NCBI GenBank assembly: GCA_964460485.1
Contig: CAYWRY010000001.1
Location: 21,761 to 85,760 of the forward strand
Length of the DNA stretch: 64,000 nucleotides
Direction of reading: 5' to 3'
From: an uncultured Spirochaetales bacterium
GTDB taxonomy: Bacteria; Myxococcota_A; UBA9160; UBA6930
Position 1 is the first letter of the stretch. The number at the start of each line of letters is the position of its first letter. The notes beneath the pieces are model-generated. The model saw only the letters and a program-made list of their open reading frames with translations, had not been told where the DNA came from and made no database searches. Positions 1 through 40,238 of the stretch are shown here, in pieces. The position numbers and the translations under genes were made by a program.

Positions 1-167
1 AGCCAGCCGATCTGCGGGCCGTTGCCGTGGGTGACGACCACGGCATGCTCGCGCGCGAGCGCGGCGACGATCTCGGCGGCGCGCGCGACGGCGGTCTGCT
101 GCTGGGCGAGGGTGGCGCCGCCCGGCGGCGCCAGCGCGTGTCCGCCCAGCGCGACCACGAGCCTCAC
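1..167 (-). CDS. arcC: carbamate kinase, N-terminal part only (gene continues past the left edge)
   Basis: Not in the ORF track because there is no stop in the window. The reverse complement of 1..167 reads (GTG)RLVVALGGHALAPPGGATLAQQQTAVARAAEIVAALAREHAVVVTHGNGPQIGWL. This is an amino-acid-kinase N-terminus with the GNGPQ(V/I)G motif typical of carbamate kinase. The GTG at 165-167 overlaps the upstream stop (GTGA). Confidence 0.65.
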   Translation of the reverse strand, partial: MRLVVALGGHALAPPGGATLAQQQTAVARAAEIVAALAREHAVVVTHGNGPQIGW

Positions 168-1498
168 GGCAACGCTCGCGCGAGGAAGCCGTCGACGAAC
201 GCGCCGAGCCCGGGTTCGCGCGTCTCCGCGTACTCGTAGCGCGCGCGCACCACCGGCAGGCGCAGGCCGAGCAGCGCGGCGAGGTCGATGGGCGTGCCGG
301 CCACGATCGCGTCGGCGGGCGCGGCGTTCAGCGTGGCGGCGAGGGCGGCGCGCTGCGCGGCGTTGTAGCCCAGCGCCGGCAGCACGGGCCCGAGGTGCGG
401 GTAGCGCGCGAGCTCGGCCGCGAGCTCCGGGGGAGCGAACGGGCGCGCGTCTACGATCTCTCTCGCGCCCGCGCGCACCGCCGCCACGTAGCCGGCGCCG
501 TACGGCATGCCGCCGTGGGTGAGCGTCGGGCCGTCGTCCACCACCACCACGCGCTTGCCGCGCACGAGCGCGTCGTCGGCCAACGCGACGGGCGAGGCGC
601 CGCGCACGCGCGGCACGTGCGGTGCGATCGCCGCGAGCGCGGCTTCGACGCGCGCCACGCTCTCCGCCGGCGCCGCGTCGGACTTCGCCACGACGAACAC
701 GTCCGCCATCCGCGCCACCGCCTCGCCCGGATGGTGCGTGTCGACGTCGCCCGGACGCAGCGCGTCGGCGAGCACGACGTGGAGGCCGGGGCGCACGAAG
801 GGGAAGTCGTTGTTCCCACCGTCCCAGAGCAGGACGTCGGCCTCTGCTTCCGCCGCGCTCACGATCGCGCGGTAGTCGACGCCGGCGAACACCGTGCAAC
901 CGCGCTCCAGGTACGGCTCGTACTCCTCGCGCTCCTCGATCGTCGCCGCGGCGACGTCGAGGTCGGAGCGCATCGCGAATCGCTGGACGCGCTGCGCGGC
1001 GAGGTCGCCGTAGGGCATCGGGTGGCGCAGCGCGGCGACGCGCAGTCCGCGCACGCGTAGCCGAGCGGCGATCCAGCGCGCGACCTGGCTCTTGCCGCAG
1101 CCCGTGCGCACCGCCGAGACGGCGATCACCGGGCGCGCGGAGCGCAGCATGGTGCGCGGGCCCGCGAGCGAGAAGTCACAGCCGGCGGCGAGCGCGCGCG
1201 AGGCGAGGTGCATCACGTGAGCGTGGGTCACGTCGCTGTAGGCGAACACCACTTCGTGCGCCCCGTGCTTTGCACACAGCGCCTCCAGCGCGGACTCGGG
1301 CTCGATCGGCACCCCGTTCGGATAGAGCGAACCCGCCAGCGAGGCGGGAAAGGTCCGTCCGGCGATGCCCTCGATCTGCGCCGCCGTGAACGCGACGACC
1401 TCCACCGCCGGATCGTCGCGCCAGAGCGTCAGAAAGTCGTGGAAGTCGCGGCCCGCAGCGCCGAGCACCACGAGGCGCCGCCGCTGGCGGGCGCTCAC
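164..1498 (-). CDS. COG2403-type predicted GTPase / cyclic 2,3-diphosphoglycerate synthetase-like protein
   Basis: C-terminal 444 aa of track ORF 164..2470. GTG at 1496-1498 overlaps the upstream stop (GTGA). Translation VVLGAAGRDFHDF...AVRTGCGKSQVARW...LLWDGGNNDFPF is protein-like and matches this family from memory. The rest of the track ORF is Arg/Pro junk. Confidence 0.75.
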   Translation of the reverse strand: MSARQRRRLVVLGAAGRDFHDFLTLWRDDPAVEVVAFTAAQIEGIAGRTFPASLAGSLYPNGVPIEPESALEALCAKHGAHEVVFAYSDVTHAHVMHLASRALAAGCDFSLAGPRTMLRSARPVIAVSAVRTGCGKSQVARWIAARLRVRGLRVAALRHPMPYGDLAAQRVQRFAMRSDLDVAAATIEEREEYEPYLERGCTVFAGVDYRAIVSAAEAEADVLLWDGGNNDFPFVRPGLHVVLADALRPGDVDTHHPGEAVARMADVFVVAKSDAAPAESVARVEAALAAIAPHVPRVRGASPVALADDALVRGKRVVVVDDGPTLTHGGMPYGAGYVAAVRAGAREIVDARPFAPPELAAELARYPHLGPVLPALGYNAAQRAALAATLNAAPADAIVAGTPIDLAALLGLRLPVVRARYEYAETREPGLGAFVDGFLARALP

Positions 1499-2298
1499 GG
1501 CTTCGCGCGCTCTCCGCCCGCGCAGCGCACGCAGGCGGTGCTGCCCGGCAGCGCGCGCAGGCGCGCGACCGGGATGCGGTCGCCGCAGTGGTCGCAGATG
1601 CCGAAGCGCCCCTGCGCCGCGCGCTCGAGGGCGTGGTCGAGGGCCGCGAGCCGCCGCGCCTTGGCAGCCTCGAGCACTTCCGAGAGCTGCTCGTCGGTGC
1701 GCAGCGACGCGGCGTCGGCCTGGTCGCCGGGCTCGCGCCGCTCCTCCGTGCGCCGGCGGTCGCGTTCCGCGAACTGCGCCAGCTCCTTGGCCACCGCGTC
1801 GCGCTCGCGGCGCAGCTCTTTCAGCAGCGTCTGCTCGGGGGGGACCGGCGCGCGCTCCGTGCTGAGACGCTCCGTCCAGAGATGCGTGGCGAGCGCGCGC
1901 AGCGCGTCGGTCTCGGAGAGGATGCCCGCCAGTCGCCCCGCGCCGTCGACGATCGGCAGGCAGCCGATGCGCCGGTCCGCCATGCGCTCGGCGGCGTGCT
2001 GGAGGGAATCGTCGGGGCCGAGCGTGTCGGGCGCGTGAGTCATCAGGTCCGCAACCGTCCAGTTCGCTTCGGCGTCGCGGGCCTCGACGTCGATCGGGCC
2101 GCGCAGGCTCGCGCCGACGGGCAGGGCGCTGCGCAGGTCGTCGAGCGCGAGCACGCCGACCACGCGGCGGTCTCCGTCGACGACCGGGAGGTGGCGGACG
2201 CCGTGGCGAATCATGCGCTCGTGAGCGGCGAGCGCCGACTCGTCGGCGGTGGCGGTGACGGGGTCCCCGCTCATCCAGCTCTTGATGGCGTCGTGCAT
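1495..2298 (-). CDS. CBS-pair domain fused to a DksA/TraR C4 zinc-finger domain
   Basis: C-terminal 267 aa of ORF 1495..3717, starting MHDAIKSW with GGAGGA 6 nt upstream. The N-terminal half is two CBS-like repeats (HLPVVDGDRRVVGVLALDDL, CLPIVDGAGRLAGILSETD). The C-terminal half has a coiled coil, the tip motif DQADAA (DxxDxA) and CDHCGDRIPVARLRALPGSTACVRC (CxxC-N17-CxxC). Confidence 0.85.
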   Translation of the reverse strand: MHDAIKSWMSGDPVTATADESALAAHERMIRHGVRHLPVVDGDRRVVGVLALDDLRSALPVGASLRGPIDVEARDAEANWTVADLMTHAPDTLGPDDSLQHAAERMADRRIGCLPIVDGAGRLAGILSETDALRALATHLWTERLSTERAPVPPEQTLLKELRRERDAVAKELAQFAERDRRRTEERREPGDQADAASLRTDEQLSEVLEAAKARRLAALDHALERAAQGRFGICDHCGDRIPVARLRALPGSTACVRCAGGERAKP

Positions 2299-2333
2299 CG
2301 GGCTTCCTCCTTGCGCGTCGGCGGAAGGCCAGG

Positions 2334-2349
2334 TGCAAGCGTAGTGCCG
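2334..2349 (-). promoter_or_regulatory. sigma-54 (-24/-12) promoter candidate for the CBS-DksA operon
   Basis: Minus strand reads CGGCACTACGCTTGCA (GGCAC-N5-TTGCA, GG to GC spacing exact). There are 36 nt between the GC and the start codon at 2298, and that stretch contains the GGAGGA RBS. Confidence 0.7.
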
Positions 2350-2453: not shown

Positions 2454-2469
2454 TGGCATCCTGCGTGCA
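2454..2469 (+). promoter_or_regulatory. sigma-54 promoter candidate for the K+ channel gene
   Basis: TGGCATCCTGCGTGCA with correct GG-N10-GC spacing. Only 16 nt lie between the GC and the ATG at 2485, so the predicted leader is very short. Divergent from the 2334..2349 site. Confidence 0.6.
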
Positions 2470-2484: not shown

Positions 2485-3492
2485 ATGACGACGACCCCGG
2501 CGCAGCGCATCGCCTTCGCAGCCGCCGCGCTCGCGTTGATCGCGGCGTTCGGAACGGCGGGCTACGTGCTGCTCGAGGGGTGGCCGGTCCTCGACGCGCT
2601 CTACATGACGGTGACCACGATGACGACCGTGGGCTACCGCGAGGTCCATCCGCTGAGCCGCGCGGGTCTGGTCTTCACGATGGTGCTGATCGTCGTCGGG
2701 GTGGGCGGAGCCCTCTACCTGCTCACGCAGGTGGCGGAGCTCATCCTGGACCGCCGCCTGCGCGCGGGCCTGCGAAGGAGAGTCATGGAGCGCTCGATCG
2801 GAAGGCTGTCGGGGCACATCGTGGTGTGCGGGTACGGACGCTTCGGCCGCGTCGTGGCCGACGAGCTGCGCCGCGCCGGGGAGCCGGTCGTGGTCGTGGA
2901 CCTCTCGACCGCGCTCGAAGACGAGCTGGCGACGACAGGCCTGCCGTTCGTGATCGGCACGGCGGCGTCCGACGAGACCCTCGAGCGCGCCGGGGTCGCG
3001 CGCGCTCGAGCGATCGTGGTGGCGACCTCCTCGGACGCGGACAACGTCTTCATCACGCTCGCTGCGCGCGAGCTGAATCCCGGGATCCAGATCTACGCGC
3101 GGGGTGAGAGCGACGCCGCTGCCCGGCGCCTCGAGCGCGCGGGCGCATGCTCGGTGACCTCCCCCTTCCGCATCGGCGGCCAGCGCGTGGCGGCCTCGAT
3201 CCTGCGACCTTCCGTGGTCGATTTCCTCGAGATCGGGCGTCCCCGGCAAGGCGGCGAGGTGGACCTCGAGGAGGTGCGCGTCGCGGCGGGGTCCGCCCTC
3301 GTCGGGCGCGCAGTTCGCGATCTGGAAGCCGAGGCAAGCGGCGTGCGGGTCGTGGCCGTCAAGCGCGCCGGCGAGTCGATGTTGCTGGCGCCGGTCGCCG
3401 AAACGACCATCGGCGCCGGCGACCACGTCGTCGTGATCGGGTCGCGGGCGCCGCTGCTCAAGCTCGCGGAGTCTGCTGCGACCGGCCGCTGA
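2485..3492 (+). CDS. two-TM K+-channel-like protein with RCK (TrkA-N/TrkA-C) domains
   Basis: C-terminal 335 aa of ORF 1588..3492. Contains a pore helix and filter MTVTTMTTVGYRE, a Rossmann motif VVCGYGRFG and a TrkA-C-like tail. The filter is non-canonical: GYRE where GYGD is expected. Confidence 0.85.
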   Translation: MTTTPAQRIAFAAAALALIAAFGTAGYVLLEGWPVLDALYMTVTTMTTVGYREVHPLSRAGLVFTMVLIVVGVGGALYLLTQVAELILDRRLRAGLRRRVMERSIGRLSGHIVVCGYGRFGRVVADELRRAGEPVVVVDLSTALEDELATTGLPFVIGTAASDETLERAGVARARAIVVATSSDADNVFITLAARELNPGIQIYARGESDAAARRLERAGACSVTSPFRIGGQRVAASILRPSVVDFLEIGRPRQGGEVDLEEVRVAAGSALVGRAVRDLEAEASGVRVVAVKRAGESMLLAPVAETTIGAGDHVVVIGSRAPLLKLAESAATGR

Positions 3493-3580: not shown

Positions 3581-3596
3581 GGGCACGCCCTGTGCT
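3581..3596 (+). promoter_or_regulatory. sigma-54 promoter candidate for usp-mgtE
   Basis: GGGCACGCCCTGTGCT (GGCACG-N4-GTGC). There are 27 nt to the ATG at 3623, with GGAGGTG in between. Nearly identical to the 42852..42867 site. Confidence 0.6.
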
Positions 3597-3622: not shown

Positions 3623-4507
3623 ATGCGTGCCCCCCGCAAGATCGTGGTGGCGACGGACTTCTCCGCCTGCGCAGAGCGCGCGCTCTCGGTGGCGCTCGCG
3701 ATCGGCGCCCACGGCAAGGCCGAGATCCATCTCGTGCACGCGCTCGAGGTGCCCGCGGTGGCCTACACGCCCTACGCGACGGCGCTCCCCGACGACCTGC
3801 TGGCCGCCGCGCGCGAGTCGGCGCAGCGGCGCCTCGCCGGCGCGGAAGCGGGCGTCCGCGCGAGCGGCCTCCCGGTTTCGTCGAGCCTCGCGAGCGTGCC
3901 CGCCGGGTCGGCGATCGCGAGCACGGCCAAGCAGATCGGCGCGGATCTGGTGGTGGTCGGATCGCGTGGGCACACGGGGCTCAAGCGGCTCGCGCTGGGC
4001 AGCGTCGCCGAGCACACGGTGAAGGAGTCGCCAGTTTCAGTGCTGACCGTGCGCGGCGAGGGCCACGCCGAGACGCCGAGAGTGATCGTCGTCGGCGTCG
4101 ACTTCTCGGAGGGCTCCGAGCGCGCGGTGGCCCTCGCCGCGGACTGGGCGCGCAGCTTCGGCGCGCAGCTCCAGCTGGTGAACGGTCTCGCTCTGACGAT
4201 GCCGTTCCTCGCGCCCTACGAGGTGACGGTTCCCGACGCGCTGATCGACGAGAGCTACGCCAATGCGAACAAGCGGCTCGCGGCGATCGCCGAGACGCTG
4301 CGCGACCTCGACGTGCACGCGAGCGTGGTGAGCGCCGCGCCCCACGACGCGCTCGACACGGTCGCCGCGCGCGTGAAGGCGGACCTGATCGTGACCGGCT
4401 CGCGCGGGCTGCGCGGGCTCCGGCACGCGCTGCTGGGCAGCGTGGCCGAGCGCACGCTGCGCCACGCGCCGTGCAGCGTGCTCACCGTGAAGAGCGCCGT
4501 CGCGTAG
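3623..4507 (+). CDS. tandem universal stress protein (two UspA domains)
   Basis: Full track ORF, 294 aa. Both halves have USP hallmarks (KIVVATDFS...VVGSRGHTGLKRLALGSVAEHTV and VIVVGVDFS...VTGSRGLRGLRHALLGSVAERTL). Paralog of 40242..41126. Confidence 0.9.
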   Translation: MRAPRKIVVATDFSACAERALSVALAIGAHGKAEIHLVHALEVPAVAYTPYATALPDDLLAAARESAQRRLAGAEAGVRASGLPVSSSLASVPAGSAIASTAKQIGADLVVVGSRGHTGLKRLALGSVAEHTVKESPVSVLTVRGEGHAETPRVIVVGVDFSEGSERAVALAADWARSFGAQLQLVNGLALTMPFLAPYEVTVPDALIDESYANANKRLAAIAETLRDLDVHASVVSAAPHDALDTVAARVKADLIVTGSRGLRGLRHALLGSVAERTLRHAPCSVLTVKSAVA

Positions 4508-4521
4508 CGCAGGCGCGCGGG

Positions 4522-5520
4522 GTGGAGGTGGAGGCGCAAGCTGCCGCGCCGCGCGAGGGCGCGCTGGTGCTGTTCGAGACGGCCGCGCAGCACGCCACGC
4601 GGCGGGTACCGATCGCGCGCCCGGAGGAAGCCGCCGGCGTGCTGCGCGCCTCGCTCCTGGGACGGCGCTTCGACAGCGCCGCCCACGTGGTGGTGTGCGA
4701 CGCGAACGGACGCTTCCTCGGCCTGCTGCGCACCGAGGACCTGCTGTCGGCGCCCACACACGCGCCGGTGGGCGGGCTGATGGACGCCGCTGCGCCCGTC
4801 GTGGCGCCGGGCGTGGACCAGGAGGTCGCCGCCGTTCGCGCCGCGCAGCGCGGCGAATCGGCGCTCAGCGTCGTCGATGGCGACGGACGCTTCGTGGGGC
4901 TGATTCCGCCGGACCGACTGATCGCGGTCCTGCTCGCCGAGCACGAAGAGGATCTTTCGCACCACGGCGGCTTCCTGGTGCGCGCCGACGCCCTGCGCAC
5001 GAGCGAGGAGCCCGTGCGCATGCGCTTCCGCCATCGCCTGCCATGGCTTCTGCTCGGCCTCGCCTGTGCCCTCGCCGCGGCCGATCTCGTCGCCGGCTTC
5101 GCGACGACGCTCGAGCGGCGCGTCGCGCTCGCGTTCTTCCTGCCCGGCATCGTCTATCTCGCAGACGCCGTCGGCACGCAGACGGAGACGCTGGTCGTGC
5201 GGGCGCTGTCGCTGGGCGTCTCCCTGCGGCGCATGGCCGCGCGCGAGCTGCTGACCGGCTGCGCGATCGGCGTGGCGCTTGCGGCGCTGGCGTTTCCCCT
5301 GCTGTGGCTGCGCTGGCGGGAGGCGGACCTCGCAGCAGCGGTGTCGCTCGCGATGCTCGCCGCGTGCTCCACGGCGACCGTCGCAGCGATGGCGCTGCCG
5401 TGGCTGCTCCAGCGCTCTGGCTTCGACCCCGCCCTCGGCAGCGGCCCGCTCGCGACCGTGCTCCAGGACCTGATCTCGATCCTGCTGTTCTTCGGGATCG
5501 CGGGCGCGATCGCGCCGTGA
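4522..5520 (+). CDS. mgtE: MgtE-family Mg2+ transporter (CBS pair plus MgtE membrane domain, no long N-domain)
   Basis: ORF 4471..5520. The GTG at 4522 was chosen because it lies just after the usp stop, so the start is uncertain. Contains CBS-like repeats, then FFLPGIVYLADAVGTQTETLVVRAL and 5 hydrophobic segments. Confidence 0.8.
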   Translation: MEVEAQAAAPREGALVLFETAAQHATRRVPIARPEEAAGVLRASLLGRRFDSAAHVVVCDANGRFLGLLRTEDLLSAPTHAPVGGLMDAAAPVVAPGVDQEVAAVRAAQRGESALSVVDGDGRFVGLIPPDRLIAVLLAEHEEDLSHHGGFLVRADALRTSEEPVRMRFRHRLPWLLLGLACALAAADLVAGFATTLERRVALAFFLPGIVYLADAVGTQTETLVVRALSLGVSLRRMAARELLTGCAIGVALAALAFPLLWLRWREADLAAAVSLAMLAACSTATVAAMALPWLLQRSGFDPALGSGPLATVLQDLISILLFFGIAGAIAP

Positions 5521-5542: not shown

Positions 5543-6382
5543 TCAGTGCGGCTGCGACGGCGGGGGCGCGCCGCGGCGGCCCGGCAGGTACTCGACGCCC
5601 GGCTGGCGCCGCACGGGCTGCGGATAGAGGGCCATCAGCTGAAGGACCTCTGCCGGCATCTCGGTGGAGACGCTGAGGCCGAGCTTGCGCGCCTCGTCCA
5701 CGGTGACGGGGTAGTCGTGCGTCCAGCGGCCCTCGGACAGATCGCTCGCGAGCGTGTCGCGCACGTGCTCGGGGAGCCGGTCCGCGGTGATGTCCTGAAT
5801 CGTCTGGCGGAGCTGTTTCAGCGCCATCTCGCTCTGGTCGGCGAGGATCAGGGTCTCGTCGTCGACCTCGGCGATCGGTTTGCGCTCGACGGCGCGCAGG
5901 ATCGAGGCCGCCGGCGCGCCGCCGACCTGCGGATCCGCCGGGCCGAGCACCGCGTGCTCGCTCATCACGATCTCGTCGGCGGCGAGCGCGATCAGCGTGC
6001 CGCCCGACATCGCGTAGTGCGGCACGAACACGGTCACCTTGCCGGGCCGCCGCGCCAGCGCGCGCGCGATCTGCGTCGAGGCCAGCGCGAGGCCGCCGGG
6101 CGTGTGCAGGACGAGATCGATGGGCAGCGCGGGATCGGTGAGATGGATCGCGCGCAGGATCTGCTCCGAGTCGTCCACGTCGATGTACCGGAAGACCGGA
6201 ATGCCGAGGAAGCTCATCGTCTCCTGGCGGTGGACGAGCGAAATGACGCGCGAGCCGCGCGCCTGCTCGATGCGGCCGATCAGGCGCGCGCGCATCGCCT
6301 CGAGCAGGCGTTGCCGGATCATCGGCTGCACCGCGAGCGCCAGGAAAACCAGCCAGATCCACTCGCTCACGCGGCTCTCCAT
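5543..6382 (-). CDS. SDH-family Clp-fold serine protease (periplasmic/membrane-anchored, PF01972-like)
   Basis: C-terminal 279 aa of ORF 5543..6772, starting MESRVSEWIWLVFLALAV (N-terminal TM). Contains LVLHTPGGLALAS and HYAMSGGTLIALAADEIVM, typical of this family from memory. Confidence 0.75.
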   Translation of the reverse strand: MESRVSEWIWLVFLALAVQPMIRQRLLEAMRARLIGRIEQARGSRVISLVHRQETMSFLGIPVFRYIDVDDSEQILRAIHLTDPALPIDLVLHTPGGLALASTQIARALARRPGKVTVFVPHYAMSGGTLIALAADEIVMSEHAVLGPADPQVGGAPAASILRAVERKPIAEVDDETLILADQSEMALKQLRQTIQDITADRLPEHVRDTLASDLSEGRWTHDYPVTVDEARKLGLSVSTEMPAEVLQLMALYPQPVRRQPGVEYLPGRRGAPPPSQPH

Positions 6383-6562: not shown

Positions 6563-6578
6563 CGGCATGCGCGTTGCA
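6563..6578 (+). promoter_or_regulatory. sigma-54 promoter candidate for the hsp20-CxxCH-groEL-hpf operon
   Basis: CGGCATGCGCGTTGCA (GGCAT-N5-TTGCA). There are 37 nt to the ATG at 6615, with AGGAGG at 6602-6607. Confidence 0.7.
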
Positions 6579-6614
6579 CAGCTTCTCGACGCCACCTTCA
6601 CAGGAGGAATGACG

Positions 6615-7076
6615 ATGGCGGAGAAAGAGAAGCGGGCGATCGCCCGCTGGAACCCGTTCGAGGATCTGGGCTGGTGGTTCCCGAGTCTCTCGCGCACGAG
6701 CGAGGGCGACCTGCTCGAAGACTTCTGGGGCCGTCGCGGCCCCGGGCAGTTTTCGCCGGCGACCGACATCACCGAGGACGACGGCCACTACGTCGTGAGC
6801 GCCGAGCTGCCGGGCATGAAACGCAGCGACATCAGCGTCGACGTCCACGACGGCGTGCTCACGATCCGCGGCGAGAAGAAGAGTGAACGCGAGGAGAAGA
6901 GCGAGAAGCGCCGCTACGTGGAGCGCAGCTTCGGCGCGTTCAGCCGCGCGTTCACCCTGCCGAGCGACGCCGACGAGAGCAAGGTCGAGGCGACCTTCAA
7001 GGATGGCGTCCTCACCGTCACGCTTGCGAAGTCCGAGGCCCGCAAACCTCGCGTCATCGACGTGAAGGCGTCGTGA
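6615..7076 (+). CDS. Hsp20/alpha-crystallin small heat-shock protein
   Basis: ORF 6540..7076. The ATG at 6615 sits 7 nt after AGGAGG. Alpha-crystallin core: DITEDDGHYVVSAELPGMKRSDISVDVHDGVLTIRGEKK...FSRAFTLPSDADESKVEATFKDGVLTVTL. Paralog at 42906..43361. Confidence 0.9.
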   Translation: MAEKEKRAIARWNPFEDLGWWFPSLSRTSEGDLLEDFWGRRGPGQFSPATDITEDDGHYVVSAELPGMKRSDISVDVHDGVLTIRGEKKSEREEKSEKRRYVERSFGAFSRAFTLPSDADESKVEATFKDGVLTVTLAKSEARKPRVIDVKAS

Positions 7077-8310: not shown

Positions 8311-9933
8311 ATGTCGCACACGCAGATTCTGTTCCGCGACCAGGCCCGCGCGCGGATCCTCGCCGGCGCCGCGCTGCTGGCCGACGCCGTGCGGCCGACG
8401 CTCGGTCCGAAAAGCCGCTGCGTGCTGATCGACAAGAAGTGGGGCACGCCACTGGTCTGCGACGACGGCGTCACGATCGCGAAGGAGATCAACCTGAAAG
8501 ATCCCGAGGAGAACCTCGGCGTGCGCATGCTGCGCCAGGCTTCGGTGCGCACCGGCGACGCGGTCGGCGACGGCACGACCACCTCGACGCTGCTCGCCCA
8601 CGCGATCTTCGCGGAGGGGCTGCGCAACGTGGTCGCGGGGGCGAGCGCCATCGACCTGAAGCGCGGGCTCGAGCGCGGGCTCGCGGCGGCGGTGGAGGCG
8701 CTGCGGGGGCTCTCGAAGCCGGTGAGCAGCGCGAGGGAGAAGGCGCAGGTGGCGACCATCTCCGCCCACAACAATCCGGCGATCGGGAACCTCGTCGCGG
8801 AGGCGCTCGAGAAGGTGGGCGGCGAGGGCATCGTCACCGTCGAGGAGGCGAAGGGCACCGAGACGACGCTCGAGGTCGTCGAGGGCATGCAGTTCGATCG
8901 CGGCTTCCTGTCGCCCTACTTCGTCACGGATCCCCAGAAGCTCGAGGCGGTGCTGGTCGACCCGCTGATCCTGCTCCACGACAAGCGCATCGCGACCATG
9001 AAGGACCTGGTGCCGCTGCTCGAGCGCGTGGTGCGCAACGGCCGCTCGCTCTTGATCGTCGCCGAAGAGGTCGAAGGCGAGGCGCTCGCGACGCTGGTGG
9101 TGAACAAGCTGCGCGGCGCGCTGAGCTGCCTCGCCGTGAAGGCGCCCGGCTTCGGCGACCGCCGCAAGGCGATGCTCCAGGACATGGCGATCCTGACGGG
9201 CGGCAAGGTGATCTCCGACGAGGTCGGCCTCAAGCTCGAGAACGTGGATCTCAGCGACCTCGGCTCCGCCAAGAAGGTGGTGGCCAACCAAGAGGCCACC
9301 ACGCTGATCGACGGCGCGGGCGCGAAGGAGCTGATCGAGGCGCGCTGCACGGAGCTGCGCAAGCAGATCGACGAGTCGAAGTCGGACTACGACAAGGAGA
9401 AGCTGCAAGAGCGGCTCGCGAAGCTCGCGGGCGGCGTGGCGGTGATTCGCGTGGGCGCTCCGTCGGAATCCGAGATGAAGAACCGCAAGGACGCGTTCGA
9501 CGACGCGATCGCCTCCACGAAGGCCGCCATCGCCGAAGGCATCGTGCCGGGCGGCGGCCTGCCGCTGCTGCGCATCGCGGAGGCGGTGCTGCGCGAGGAG
9601 AAGAAGTGCGAGGGCGACGAGGCGACCGGACTGCGCATCCTGCGCAGCGCACTGGAAGCGCCCGCGCGCCAGATCGCGCTCAACTCCGGTGCGGACGCCG
9701 GCGTGGTCGTGGACCGTCTGCGCAGCGGCAGCGGCGCGTTCGGCTTCGACGCGCGCCACGGGGACTACGTCGATCTCGTGGAGGCGGGCATCATCGACCC
9801 GACCAAGGTCGTGCGCATCGCGCTGGAGAACGCGGTCTCGGTGGCGGGTACGCTGCTGCTGGCGGAAGCCACGCTCACCGAAATCGAGGACGACAAGAAG
9901 GAAGGGCAGCCCGAGCTGCCGGCGGGGATGTGA
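8311..9933 (+). CDS. groEL: chaperonin GroEL (divergent, no adjacent groES)
   Basis: C-terminal 540 aa of ORF 7786..9933. GGAGGAG lies upstream of the ATG at 8311. Contains [30 protein letters not shown] and [15 protein letters not shown]. The C-terminus ends [10 protein letters not shown] without a GGM repeat. Confidence 0.9.
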
Positions 9934-9937
9934 CGCC

Positions 9938-10471
9938 ATGGAGATTCACTGGCGCAACGCGAAAGAGCTCTCGGGCGACGTGCGCGCGAAGGCGGAGGAG
10001 CAGCTCGCGAAGCTCGCCGAGCATCATCGCGACATGATCGACCTGACCGTCGACGTGGAGCGCAAGAGCGCGCATCACAAGCTGGGCAAACGCCGCGTCG
10101 AGATCCGTTGCCAGGCGCGCGGGACGAACCTTGTCGCGAACGGCGAGGCCGACGAGCTCGGGCTCGCGCTGCGCGACGCTCTGCGCACCTTCCGGCGCGA
10201 AGTCGAGAAGCTGCGGGACCGGCGCCGCGACGCGCGCGCCGAGCGCCCGGCCGAGCCGCCGCTGCGCGGCGTGATCGATCGCGTGGAGCGCGCGGGCGGC
10301 TTCGGCTTCCTCATCACCGACGCCGGCGAGCGCGTCTACTTCCACCGCAACGCGGTGGGCGGCGGGCTCGACTTCGATCGCCTCGAGGGCGGCGAGACCG
10401 TGGCCTTGAACTACGAAGCCGGCGGCGAGGGCCTGCAAGCCACGTTCGTGCGCTCGCTCGAGCCGGGCTGA
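9938..10471 (+). CDS. HPF/RaiA-like ribosome-associated domain fused to a cold-shock (CSD) domain
   Basis: C-terminal 177 aa of ORF 9689..10471. The ATG is 5 nt after the groEL stop. N-terminal MEIHWRN..VRAKAEEQLAKLAEHHRDMIDLTVDVE...VEIRCQARGTNLVANGEADELGLALRDALRTFRREVEKLRD follows the HPF/YfiA pattern. C-terminal GVIDRVERAGGFGFLITDAGERVYFHRNAV...GETVALNYEAGGEGLQATFV follows the CspA pattern. Confidence 0.75.
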   Translation: MEIHWRNAKELSGDVRAKAEEQLAKLAEHHRDMIDLTVDVERKSAHHKLGKRRVEIRCQARGTNLVANGEADELGLALRDALRTFRREVEKLRDRRRDARAERPAEPPLRGVIDRVERAGGFGFLITDAGERVYFHRNAVGGGLDFDRLEGGETVALNYEAGGEGLQATFVRSLEPG

Positions 10472-12946: not shown

Positions 12947-12962
12947 AGCAAGGCCCGTTCCA
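12947..12962 (-). promoter_or_regulatory. sigma-54 promoter candidate for the dehydrogenase-ybaK-like operon
   Basis: Minus strand reads TGGAACGGGCCTTGCT with exact spacing and a perfect -12 TTGCT. There are 28 nt to the GTG at 12919. Confidence 0.55.
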
Positions 12963-13105: not shown

Positions 13106-13121
13106 CGGCACGTCGCTTGCT
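13106..13121 (+). promoter_or_regulatory. sigma-54 promoter candidate for the APH/AAA kinase gene
   Basis: CGGCACGTCGCTTGCT, a near-consensus GGCACG-N4-TTGCT. There are 28 nt to the ATG at 13149, with GGGAGG in between. Confidence 0.7.
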
Positions 13122-38798: not shown

Positions 38799-38814
38799 TG
38801 GCATGAAGCCTGCT
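38799..38814 (+). promoter_or_regulatory. sigma-54 promoter candidate for the activator gene itself
   Basis: TGGCATGAAGCCTGCT. There are 15 nt between the GC and the ATG at 38829, so the leader is predicted to be very short. Implies autoregulation. Confidence 0.6.
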
Positions 38815-38828
38815 CCAACTAGAACCGC

Positions 38829-40238
38829 ATGCGACACACGGCTCAGATCCTCATCGTCGACGATGACCGCGCCATGCGCGAAATGCTTGCCTCGCTGTTC
38901 AAGGAGCGCGGGCTCTGGGTGGAAGAGGCGAGCTCCGCTCGCGCTGCACTCGAGCTCGCGGCGGAGCGCGAGTTCGACGTGGTGCTCTCCGACATCCGCA
39001 TGCCCGGCCTCTCGGGCATCGAGCTGGTGGGACAGCTGCGCCGGCTGCGTCCCAACACGCCGGTCGTGCTGATGACGGCATTCGGCACGATCGACTCGGC
39101 GGTCGAGGCGATGCGCGCGGGCGCCTTCGACTACATCACCAAGCCCTTCGAGCCGGAAGCGGTGAGCTTCGCCGTGGATCGCGCCATCGAGCGCGCGGCC
39201 CTGGCGCGCGAGAACGAGACGCTGCGGCGCGCGGTGCAGACCACCGGCGAGCTGGGCGAGTTGATCGGCTCGAGCGCTGCGATGCGCGACATCATCGCGC
39301 TGATCCAGCGCGTGGGTCACAGCCGCGCGAGCGTGCTGATCACGGGCGAGAGCGGCACGGGAAAGGAGGTGATCGCGCGGACGCTGCACTTCCACGGCGC
39401 GCGTCGCGAGATGCCGTTCGTGCCGATCAACTGCACGGCGATTCCCGAGGGCCTGCTCGAGAGCGAGCTGTTCGGTCACGTGCGCGGCGCCTTCACCGGC
39501 GCGCACACCAACAAGCGCGGCCTGTTCGAGAAGGCCAATGGCGGGACGCTGTTCCTCGACGAGGTCGGCGACATGGGCCTCGCGCTCCAGGGCAAGCTGC
39601 TGCGCGTGCTCCAGGATCGCGAGATCCGGCCGGTGGGCGGTACCCAGACGATCAAGGTGGACGTGCGCATCATCGCGGCCACCAACAAGGACCTGCCCGC
39701 CGAGATCGCCGCCGGGCGTTTCCGCGAGGACCTGTTCTACCGGCTGAACGTCGTGCCCATCCACGTCCCGCCCCTGCGCGAGCGCACCGACGACATCCCG
39801 GCGCTGGTGGAGGCCTTCCTGCGGCGCCACGGCGAGGGGCGCAAGCGCTTCGTCTCCGCCGAGGCGATGGCCGTGCTGCGCGCGCAGCCGTGGCGCGGCA
39901 ACGCCCGCGAGCTGGAGAACACGATCGAGCGCGCGATCGCGCTGACGGACGTGGAGACGCTGGGCCCCGCCGACATCCCGCTGCCGGCGAGCACCGGGGG
40001 TCCGCCCGCGACAGGAGCCTCCGCAGGAGCGCCGGTGGATCTCGACACCCTGCTGCGCGCTGCGGCGGCGCGCGGCACGAGCCTGCGCGACCTCGACGAG
40101 AAGTACACGGCCATCGTGCTCGCCCACACGGGGGGCAACAAGGTGCGCGCGTCGCAGATCCTCGGCATCGACCGGAAGACGCTCTACCGTCGCGCCGAGC
40201 GCCGCGCCCGCGAAGAGGGCGCGAGCGACGAGGAGTGA
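38829..40238 (+). CDS. sigma-54-dependent response regulator (NtrC family: REC-AAA+-HTH)
   Basis: Full ORF, 469 aa. REC domain ILIVDDD...SDIRMPG, Walker A GESGTGKE, the sigma-54 contact loop GAFTGA, FLDEVG and a C-terminal Fis-type HTH NKVRASQILGIDRKTLYRR. Confidence 0.92.
   Translation: MRHTAQILIVDDDRAMREMLASLFKERGLWVEEASSARAALELAAEREFDVVLSDIRMPGLSGIELVGQLRRLRPNTPVVLMTAFGTIDSAVEAMRAGAFDYITKPFEPEAVSFAVDRAIERAALARENETLRRAVQTTGELGELIGSSAAMRDIIALIQRVGHSRASVLITGESGTGKEVIARTLHFHGARREMPFVPINCTAIPEGLLESELFGHVRGAFTGAHTNKRGLFEKANGGTLFLDEVGDMGLALQGKLLRVLQDREIRPVGGTQTIKVDVRIIAATNKDLPAEIAAGRFREDLFYRLNVVPIHVPPLRERTDDIPALVEAFLRRHGEGRKRFVSAEAMAVLRAQPWRGNARELENTIERAIALTDVETLGPADIPLPASTGGPPATGASAGAPVDLDTLLRAAAARGTSLRDLDEKYTAIVLAHTGGNKVRASQILGIDRKTLYRRAERRAREEGASDEE

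Follow-up and report, generated by a model that had tools for sequence, protein, structure and literature searches.

A CBS-pair protein with a DksA-like C-terminal half encoded in uncultured Myxococcota

The stretch of DNA analysed here (the window, 64 kb in all, in whose numbering all nucleotide (nt) coordinates are given) comes from an uncultured Spirochaetales bacterium that GTDB places in Myxococcota_A (NCBI GenBank assembly GCA_964460485.1, contig CAYWRY010000001.1, positions 21,761 to 85,760 of the forward strand). At positions 1495–2298, on the minus strand, it carries a gene for a protein of 267 amino acids (aa) in which a pair of CBS domains is joined to a DksA-like coiled coil and a C4 zinc finger. 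An earlier reading, made from the letters of the DNA (the sequence-only reading), had given the coordinates of this open reading frame (ORF) exactly. Public records annotate the protein merely as "CBS domain-containing protein" or "AcuB", and a literature search found no paper describing a CBS–DksA fusion. The gene, its parts and its upstream signals are as follows; pLDDT is the predicted local distance difference test score of the structural models.

1495..2298, minus strand: coding sequence of the CBS–DksA-like fusion, 267 aa plus stop (translation; two Pfam CBS repeats and zf-dskA_traR)
1855..2298, minus strand: CBS pair (Bateman module), aa 1–148 (Pfam; AlphaFold2 pLDDT about 90)
1741..1839, minus strand: coiled-coil helix 1, aa 154–186 (DSSP on the AlphaFold2 models)
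1708..1725, minus strand: hairpin tip DQADAA, aa 192–197 (aligned to E. coli DksA D71–A76)
1615..1722, minus strand: coiled-coil helix 2, aa 193–228, with R215-R216-L217 almost invariant (DSSP on the AlphaFold2 models)
1513..1611, minus strand: DksA/TraR-type C4 zinc ribbon, aa 230–262, with C235, C238, C256 and C259 (Pfam PF01258)
2305..2309, minus strand: Shine–Dalgarno sequence GGAGG, 6 nt upstream of the ATG (sequence inspection)
2334..2349, minus strand: sigma-54-type −24/−12 element CGGCACTACGCTTGCA, 36 nt upstream of the ATG

Architecture and distribution of the fusion protein

Both halves of the protein scored above the Pfam cut-offs. The two CBS repeats matched PF00571 with an E-value of 1e-31 (109.5 bits against a cut-off of 24), and the zf-dskA_traR domain was found at aa 230–262 with an E-value of 7.8e-9 (35.8 bits against 24.9). 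The zinc-finger string quoted in the sequence-only reading, CDHCGDRIPVARLRALPGSTACVRC, is present at aa 235–259 and has the pattern CxxC-N17-CxxC. The AlphaFold2 model of the full-length protein, built on an alignment of 118 sequences, reached a mean pLDDT of 87; it lays out the CBS pair at aa 1–148, helices at aa 154–186 and 193–228 and a small zinc ribbon, with the last CBS helix (aa 129–148) running into the coiled coil. A fold search of the Protein Data Bank (PDB) with this model returned CBS proteins only, and the C-terminal half (aa 151–267) was therefore modelled separately, yielding a pLDDT of 92 and a predicted template-modelling score (pTM) of 0.79. The top eight PDB matches of this second model were all DksA-family chains, followed by TraR. 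It superposed on DksA2 of Pseudomonas aeruginosa (4ijj) with a template-modelling (TM) score of 0.75 and a root-mean-square deviation of 2.6 Å over 108 columns, and on E. coli DksA bound to RNA polymerase (RNAP) with TM scores of 0.71 (7khi_M) and 0.69 (5vsw_M). In the predicted structure, then, the C-terminal half is DksA-like in fold. Pfam, AlphaFold2 and fold search agree on the two CBS repeats, the coiled coil and the zinc finger that the sequence-only reading had named, and its reservation that the C-terminal half might turn out unlike DksA is answered by the TM scores of 0.69–0.75 to DksA2 and to RNAP-bound DksA. In sequence, phmmer comparison with solved proteins placed 2KQ9 first (E-value 3e-11), ahead of Chlamydia DksA, DksA2 (1e-7), E. 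coli DksA (2.7e-4) and TraR. The DksA models of NCBIfam, of which NF033459 gave the best match, align over aa 159–262, that is, over the coiled coil and the zinc finger.

The CBS ribose-binding motif is defined as G-h-h-[ST]-x-x-[DN]; the corresponding segments of the fusion protein are GVLALDD (aa 48–54) and GILSETD (aa 125–131). Among the 118 aligned homologues, on which all residue conservation counts given here are based, T130, D131, R35 and H36 are each found in all 118, D54 in 117 and R110 in 116. Position 51, in the first motif, is Ala in the window protein and in 28 of the homologues, the family consensus being Ser. Foldseek with the full-length model gave TM scores (TMt) of 0.84–0.92 to MJ0922 and MJ0100 and also matched AcuB with AMP, ADP or ATP, and phmmer identified MJ1225, TTHA0829 and AcuB as relatives of the CBS pair at 27–34% identity (E-values of 1e-13 to 1e-17). 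The closest solved relatives, MJ1225 and AcuB, are adenine-nucleotide binders. The Bateman domain of AcuB binds AMP, ADP and ATP in both of its sites, and AcuB senses energy charge and controls its partner through a C-terminal effector domain. By analogy, the most likely ligands of the CBS pair in the fusion protein are adenine nucleotides, that is, the energy charge of the cell.

The fusion forms a genuine family. Full-length homologues with both halves in one frame number more than 118 and reach down to 41% identity. In a 5.8-billion-protein index, nearly all of the 120 best of 733 matches carry both Pfam domains, and about 25 full-length clusters at 50% identity emerged when 1.84 billion cluster representatives were searched exhaustively with HMMER. 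The window protein itself (P0001) is found, identical, on at least six independent public contigs from different samples; its G+C content at third codon positions (GC3) is of coding type and runs unbroken across the ORF, and the linker helix between the CBS and the DksA-like halves is conserved in the homologue alignment. The gene caller used here reproduced the public gene calls on locus L001. In a genome scan, full-length copies occurred only in metagenome-assembled genomes (MAGs) labelled Myxococcota or "delta proteobacterium", none of them from a cultured organism. Candidates outside Myxococcota were rejected: matches of the Desulfosarcina and Thermodesulfovibrionales type that run past the CBS pair end in a non-DksA C-terminal region that has no zinc finger, and the remaining inspected ones are CBS-only or double-CBS proteins. 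As the inspected non-myxococcotal matches are without the DksA region, the DksA effector appears to be specific to the Myxococcota clade. A search of the 5.8-billion-protein index with the C-terminal half alone returned 11 fragmentary matches and no new architectures. Some family members (P0132, P0134 and P0074, 364–372 aa; L028, 117–1226) have an extra C-terminal Cys-rich domain of ~105 aa after the DksA zinc ribbon (…FGTCRRCGDVEG…C…C…VDPAPYD), which has no Pfam match.

The hairpin tip, the zinc ribbon and ppGpp site 2

In the AlphaFold2 model the hairpin spans 75 residues, as does the coiled-coil domain of E. coli DksA (33/35 to 108/109). Its tip holds DQADAA, the sole DxxDxA within the fusion protein; among 20,000 shuffled versions, 29% had the motif somewhere and 0.9% had it at the hairpin tip (start at 187–193). 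The sequence-only reading had put DQADAA at the position of the DksA tip, and the phmmer alignment bears this out, setting D192, D195 and A197 opposite D71, D74 and A76 of E. coli DksA and also opposite the DksA2 tip DEADLA. D192 is present in all 118 homologues and P190 in 117, and position 195 is always acidic (Asp in 83, Glu in 35). Published mutants give a mixed benchmark. E. coli DksA is inactivated by D74E and by A76T. R. sphaeroides DksA carrying D80E is still functional, so Glu at position 195 is not disqualifying. Judged from the alignment, the acidic tip is clearly selected and the canonical DxxDxA motif seems not to be.

In the zinc ribbon, all four Cys residues and R246, A249 and P251 are invariant. 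The hhalign comparison of the family profile with E. coli DksA aligned only residues 97–143 of the latter, with a probability of 94%, and matched R246-L-R-A-L-P251 to E. coli R125-L-E-A-R-P130; R-L-x-A-x-P is invariant in the family. In E. coli DksA, the globular zinc-ribbon domain contacts the β′ rim helix. In the same register the equivalents of the ppGpp site-2 residues are replaced: K98 by Ala in 112 of the 118 homologues, R129 by Leu in 109 and K139 by Ala in 114. In E. coli DksA these three residues are critical to ppGpp binding and dispensable for DksA activity, and in the ppGpp-independent TraR hydrophobic residues occupy the site-2 space. Because hhalign covered only 97–143, the register of helix 2 around R91, K94 and L95, the other site-2 residues, is ambiguous; phmmer and gap-free alignments lie one residue apart there, and R215-R216-L217 is conserved nearby.

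Promoter, operon and neighbouring genes

The element upstream of the fusion gene, CGGCACTACGCTTGCA, matches the sigma-54 consensus (−24 GG and −12 GC, TGGCAC-N5-TTGCW) at 10 of the 11 specified positions, with correct spacing. When the sequences preceding the gene in five relatives are aligned (mean identity 47%), the sigma-54-type element is the sole conserved block; the intergenic alignment of these relatives likewise shows a GGAGG/GGGAG block at the place of the Shine–Dalgarno sequence. With a match threshold of at least 9/11, 23 of the 37 orthologous loci have an element in the 250 nt before the gene, where the background rate is 0.04 per 250 nt; the nominal binomial P for this enrichment is about 2e-23 and overstates independence, because the loci are phylogenetically related. 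At three loci (L019, L032 and L040), the site stands before a co-directional upstream gene instead. The label of a sigma-54-marked gene, which the sequence-only reading had attached to the fusion, is thus upheld by the match itself and by the 23 of 37 orthologous loci. Other features of the window are:

164..1498, minus strand: 444-aa P-loop protein, COG2403-like; its GTG start overlaps the fusion stop (GTGA, 1495–1498)
1..158, minus strand: 5′ part of a carbamate kinase gene that runs off the window (NCBIfam E-value 4e-100)
2454..2469, plus strand: second sigma-54-type element, pointing toward the divergent K+ channel gene (2485–3492), in the same 186-bp intergenic region
9938..10471, plus strand: HPF/YfiA (S30AE) fused to a C-terminal cold-shock domain (HPF-CSD)
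38829..40238, plus strand: NtrC-type enhancer-binding protein (receiver, Sigma54_activat and HTH_8), with its own sigma-54-like site at 38799–38814

In L007, too, a comparable sigma-54-type site stands upstream of the K+ channel gene. Inverted repeats in the 186-bp intergenic region are GC-rich and imperfect and were not taken as activator sites. Across the 64-kb window there are 21 sigma-54-type matches of at least 9/11, 16 of which sit 12–131 nt before a gene start in the correct orientation. Such sites are unusually dense in the window, and several are followed so closely by the start codon that almost no leader would remain on the mRNA; examples of the sites are 2454–2469 (+), 3581–3596 (+), 6563–6578 (+), 12947–12962 (−), 13106–13121 (+) and 38799–38814 (+). 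The genes behind them include those for the K+ channel, a tandem Usp, Hsp20, glutamate dehydrogenase and an NtrC-type activator. The NtrC-type protein at 38829–40238 is a candidate activator.

The sequence-only reading had set the fusion gene in one operon with the COG2403-like gene and carbamate kinase. These genes are translationally coupled, and on the identical contigs the operon extends beyond the end of the window: carbamate kinase is followed by a NuoF-like gene (NCBIfam E-value 1e-100) and a formate dehydrogenase alpha (Fdh-alpha) gene (687 bits, above the cut-off), and from the fusion through the P-loop protein, carbamate kinase and NuoF-like protein to Fdh-alpha the stops and starts overlap or nearly abut. 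The P-loop protein has no Pfam or NCBIfam match and matches cyclic 2,3-diphosphoglycerate synthetase 9sxb weakly (E-value 0.006); a literature search found no paper on COG2403. The P-loop protein, carbamate kinase, the NuoF-like protein and Fdh-alpha make an odd set of enzymes to which no pathway is assigned. The phyletic survey that the sequence-only reading had proposed supports the fusion as a real family of Myxococcota-type MAGs and restricts the COG2403/carbamate-kinase operon to relatives of at least 76% identity: it is full only in L007–L009, and L010 retains only the NuoF-like and Fdh genes. As a family-wide functional clue the operon was therefore rejected; being lineage-specific, it says little about what the family does.

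Other genes recur beside the fusion across the family. Tandem Usp genes were found at 11 loci, NuoF at 8, Fdh and Hsp20 at 7 each, a BCAM0308-family gene with an NMD3-like domain at 6, HPF-CSD at 5, baeRF at 4 and RtcB at 3. Two of these gene types have the following positions, in the numbering of each locus:

L016 8798–9292, L029 8801–9331, L039 8792–9322 and L019 6842–7348: BCAM0308-family/NMD3-like genes
L020 4430–5587, L021 6818–7960, L032 6794–7966 and L087 6743–7900: baeRF (Pfam baeRF_family3), Balon-related

The BCAM0308-family protein (200 bits, above the cut-off) is encoded with a 4-nt overlap with the fusion stop at three loci, and in L019 a sigma-54-type site is followed by BCAM0308-like, HPF-CSD and CBS-DksA genes in a row. 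At all four of its loci, baeRF is the gene directly before CBS-DksA, in the same orientation; its relation to Balon is distant (NCBIfam NF052287, 80 bits, below the cut-off). HPF-CSD, present in the window at 9938–10471, adjoins the CBS-DksA gene at five other loci (L011, L019, L038, L040 and L087). Balon operons are reported to have RaiA/HPF, Hsp20, RtcB and the hypoxia factor Hrp1 as partners. The neighbours of the fusion family match these partners; they are similar, too, to the low-oxygen lxa locus of Burkholderia.

In the window, a block of stress genes diverges from the fusion gene (2485–3492 (+), 3623–4507 (+), 4522–5520 (+), 5543–6382 (−), 6609–7076 (+) and 8311–9933 (+)). Their products are a K+ channel with TrkA domains, a tandem Usp, a CBS-containing MgtE, an SDH/NfeD-type protease, Hsp20 and GroEL, and several of the genes have sigma-54-like sites upstream.

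Relation to known factors and a proposed function

To our knowledge, every DksA/TraR protein characterised so far is small and stands alone, its input being ppGpp at the DksA–RNAP interface or, in the case of TraR, none. The fusion protein shares with E. coli DksA (1TJL; 5VSW, 7KHI) the C4 zinc ribbon, a coiled coil of ~75 residues, the acidic tip and R-L-x-A-x-P. It differs from E. coli DksA in having a 148-aa CBS pair in place of the N-terminal 33 residues, a truncated C-terminal helix and Ala/Leu/Ala at site 2, the overall similarity being weak (E-value 2.7e-4); and whereas the E. coli DksA gene is constitutive, the fusion gene has a sigma-54-type promoter. The best structural match is P. 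aeruginosa DksA2 (4IJJ), whose tip PSDEADLAS can be set against PGDQADAAS residue for residue; unlike the fusion, DksA2 is a zinc-independent paralogue that stands alone, has a C-terminal helix and carries no sensor domain. TraR of the F plasmid (6N57, 5W1S) belongs to the same zinc-finger family, and its hydrophobic site 2, which makes TraR independent of ppGpp, parallels Ala/Leu/Ala. Unlike the fusion protein, TraR has 73 aa, a single N-terminal helix rather than a hairpin, a retained C-terminal helix and no sensor domain. Closest in sequence is the group of Atu0905 (2KQ9), RSP0166 and NF033459, which likewise has no long C-terminal helix, and the Asp-to-Glu change in the RSP0166 tip is that of a third of the fusion family; in contrast to the fusion, Atu0905 and RSP0166 are stand-alone proteins of about 105–113 aa without CBS domains, and their function is not demonstrated.

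On the CBS side, the pairs most like that of the fusion are those of AcuB (CBS pair plus ACT; 9S4V–9S52), TTHA0829 and MJ1225. The effector of AcuB is its ACT domain, whereas that of the fusion would be the DksA-like hairpin and zinc ribbon. Mycobacterial Hrp1 (Rv2626c) is a CBS-pair protein; it is encoded beside Balon homologues in the DosR regulon of hypoxia and dormancy, akin to the pairing of the fusion with baeRF. Unlike the fusion protein, Hrp1 is CBS-only: it carries no DksA module and is not under the control of sigma-54. Myxobacteria possess an essential canonical DksA that binds RNAP, and with this factor already present a further, accessory paralogue is plausible.

We suggest that the fusion protein is a dormancy-induced accessory factor of the DksA family that acts in the RNAP secondary channel and is gated by a CBS ligand, a proposal to which we give slightly less than an even chance. 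From architecture, conservation and gene context we infer that it would bind RNAP, what its ligand may be, that this ligand could gate it and which promoters it might target. The CBS pair would stand in for the N-terminal part of the DksA globular domain, the 75-residue coiled coil would enter the secondary channel and bring D192 and D195 near the active site in the manner of DksA, and the zinc ribbon with its R-L-x-A-x-P would dock on the channel rim. Because the site-2 residues are lost, the regulatory input would not be ppGpp at the DksA–RNAP interface. It would instead be the ligand bound by the CBS pair, which could shift the conformation or the dimerisation of that pair and thereby gate access to, or affinity for, RNAP. 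Through its sigma-54 promoter the gene would belong, together with those for Usp, Hsp20, HPF, the Balon-like factor, RtcB and the NMD3-like protein, to a regulon of the dormancy or hypoxia type, and the likely job of the protein would be to reprogramme transcription during ribosome hibernation, for example by shutting down ribosomal RNA (rRNA) promoters. That such a protein might couple control of RNAP to nucleotide or energy status is an idea strengthened by the loss of the site-2 residues and by the hibernation-gene context.

Several observations weigh against this proposal. The main reason for caution is that the nearest solved sequence relative, 2KQ9, groups with RSP0166. 2KQ9 is Atu0905, the function of which is not established; its motif lies in a long unstructured loop and its coiled-coil length is unlike that of DksA. 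RSP0166 of R. sphaeroides, 49% identical to 2KQ9, is anaerobically induced, has the Asp-to-Glu change at the tip and is without the C-terminal helix; it did not complement a dksA deletion, gave no phenotype and had no DksA-like activity. The fusion protein ends only 8 residues past its last Cys (7–8 being the modal value in the family), where E. coli DksA has 13, and the C-terminal helix is therefore largely missing, the predicted one covering only 257–260; in E. coli DksA this helix (135–151) contacts the beta lobe/SI1, and its deletion disrupts RNAP binding and repression. The N-terminal segment of the DksA globular domain (1/7 to 32/33) is replaced by the CBS pair, whose placement relative to the RNAP-docking surface is not fixed by the full-length model (pTM 0.52), and a CBS dimer could clash with RNAP. 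All three NCBIfam DksA scores fall below the curated cut-offs: 54.5 against 105 bits for NF033459, 47.1 against 115.5 for TIGR02420 and 20.7 against 289 for NF008045. The sequence-only reading had counted on a tip motif conserved among orthologues, and the picture is divided: the acidic tip is conserved, and the strict DxxDxA is kept in 32 of the 118 homologues, mainly the window protein's own subclade. At position 197, 59 homologues have Gly, 43 have Ala and 16 have Ser, so the equivalent of A76, where Thr inactivates E. coli DksA, is mostly Gly or Ser here. Among 37 genomic orthologues (to 41% identity), two are without the first Asp of the tip (L039 and L040) and one without ~19 residues including the tip (L036, 6144–6884). 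Last, the ribosome-factor neighbours fit a ribosome-directed role equally well.

Much of this could be read to mean that the DksA-like half is a structural relic away from the RNAP active site, which either binds no RNAP or has another partner, such as the ribosome or a hibernation factor, regulated through the CBS pair. The ranking of 2KQ9 as best solved relative (E-value 3e-11), the failed complementation and lack of phenotype of RSP0166, the truncated C-terminal helix, the missed NCBIfam cut-offs, the frequent Gly or Ser at the A76 equivalent and the ribosome-associated neighbours (HPF, Balon-like, RtcB and NMD3-like) would all suit a relic. A coiled coil of exactly the DksA length that superposes on RNAP-bound DksA would not, and the coiled coil of 2KQ9 differs; the invariant P-x-D and a position 195 that is acidic throughout speak for the tip itself being under selection, and the R-L-x-A-x-P of the rim-contacting globular domain is invariant as well. 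We also know of no DksA/TraR-family protein that binds ribosomes. On balance, we regard a relic as doubtful, though it is the main rival of our proposal. A different alternative grants that the protein is a secondary-channel factor but makes the CBS pair a mere dimerisation device or scaffold, with all regulation residing in sigma-54-dependent expression, or has the protein compete with canonical DksA or Gre in the way of Rnk. The conserved sigma-54 promoter would already give conditional expression, dimerisation is common among CBS pairs, some of which bind no ligand, competition of the Rnk type is an established precedent, and in the first ribose motif S51 gives way to Ala here and in 28 of the 118 homologues. 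The ribose-site Asp pair, T130, R35-H36 and R110, however, are invariant or nearly so, which is hard to explain in a pure scaffold; the nearest solved CBS relatives bind nucleotides, and the concerted loss of site 2 suggests that a different input took over. This alternative is, in our view, unlikely. The remaining alternative, an artefact in which mis-assembly or a wrong gene call has joined a CBS gene to a separate small DksA gene, is effectively refuted: no support for it was found, although databases do hold zinc-finger-only fragments and CBS-only ones (as in L043, 7929–8453, a truncation ending in a stop), and it would leave unexplained the same ORF on at least six contigs from different samples, the more than 118 homologues with both halves in frame, the continuous coding-type GC3 and the conserved linker helix.

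Finally, the proposed secondary-channel factor can be carried a step further, to a view that we hold as possible and no stronger: the family may form a new class in which a covalently attached CBS sensor replaces the ppGpp co-factor of DksA, so that adenylate status or another ligand ((p)ppGpp, c-di-AMP or Ap4A) would be read directly at RNAP, the factor itself being switched on by sigma-54 within a ribosome-hibernation and dormancy programme that couples the shut-down of rRNA synthesis to ribosome storage. If true, this would be a second, independent link from metabolic state to the RNAP active site, made by a built-in sensor, and a compact and testable sensor–effector fusion acting through the secondary channel; the protein is small, which makes its synthetic production and testing on E. 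coli or M. xanthus RNAP feasible. The sigma-54 promoter and the HPF, Balon-like, RtcB, Usp and Hsp20 neighbours point to a coordinated transcription-and-ribosome dormancy module in a large and uncultured section of the Myxococcota.

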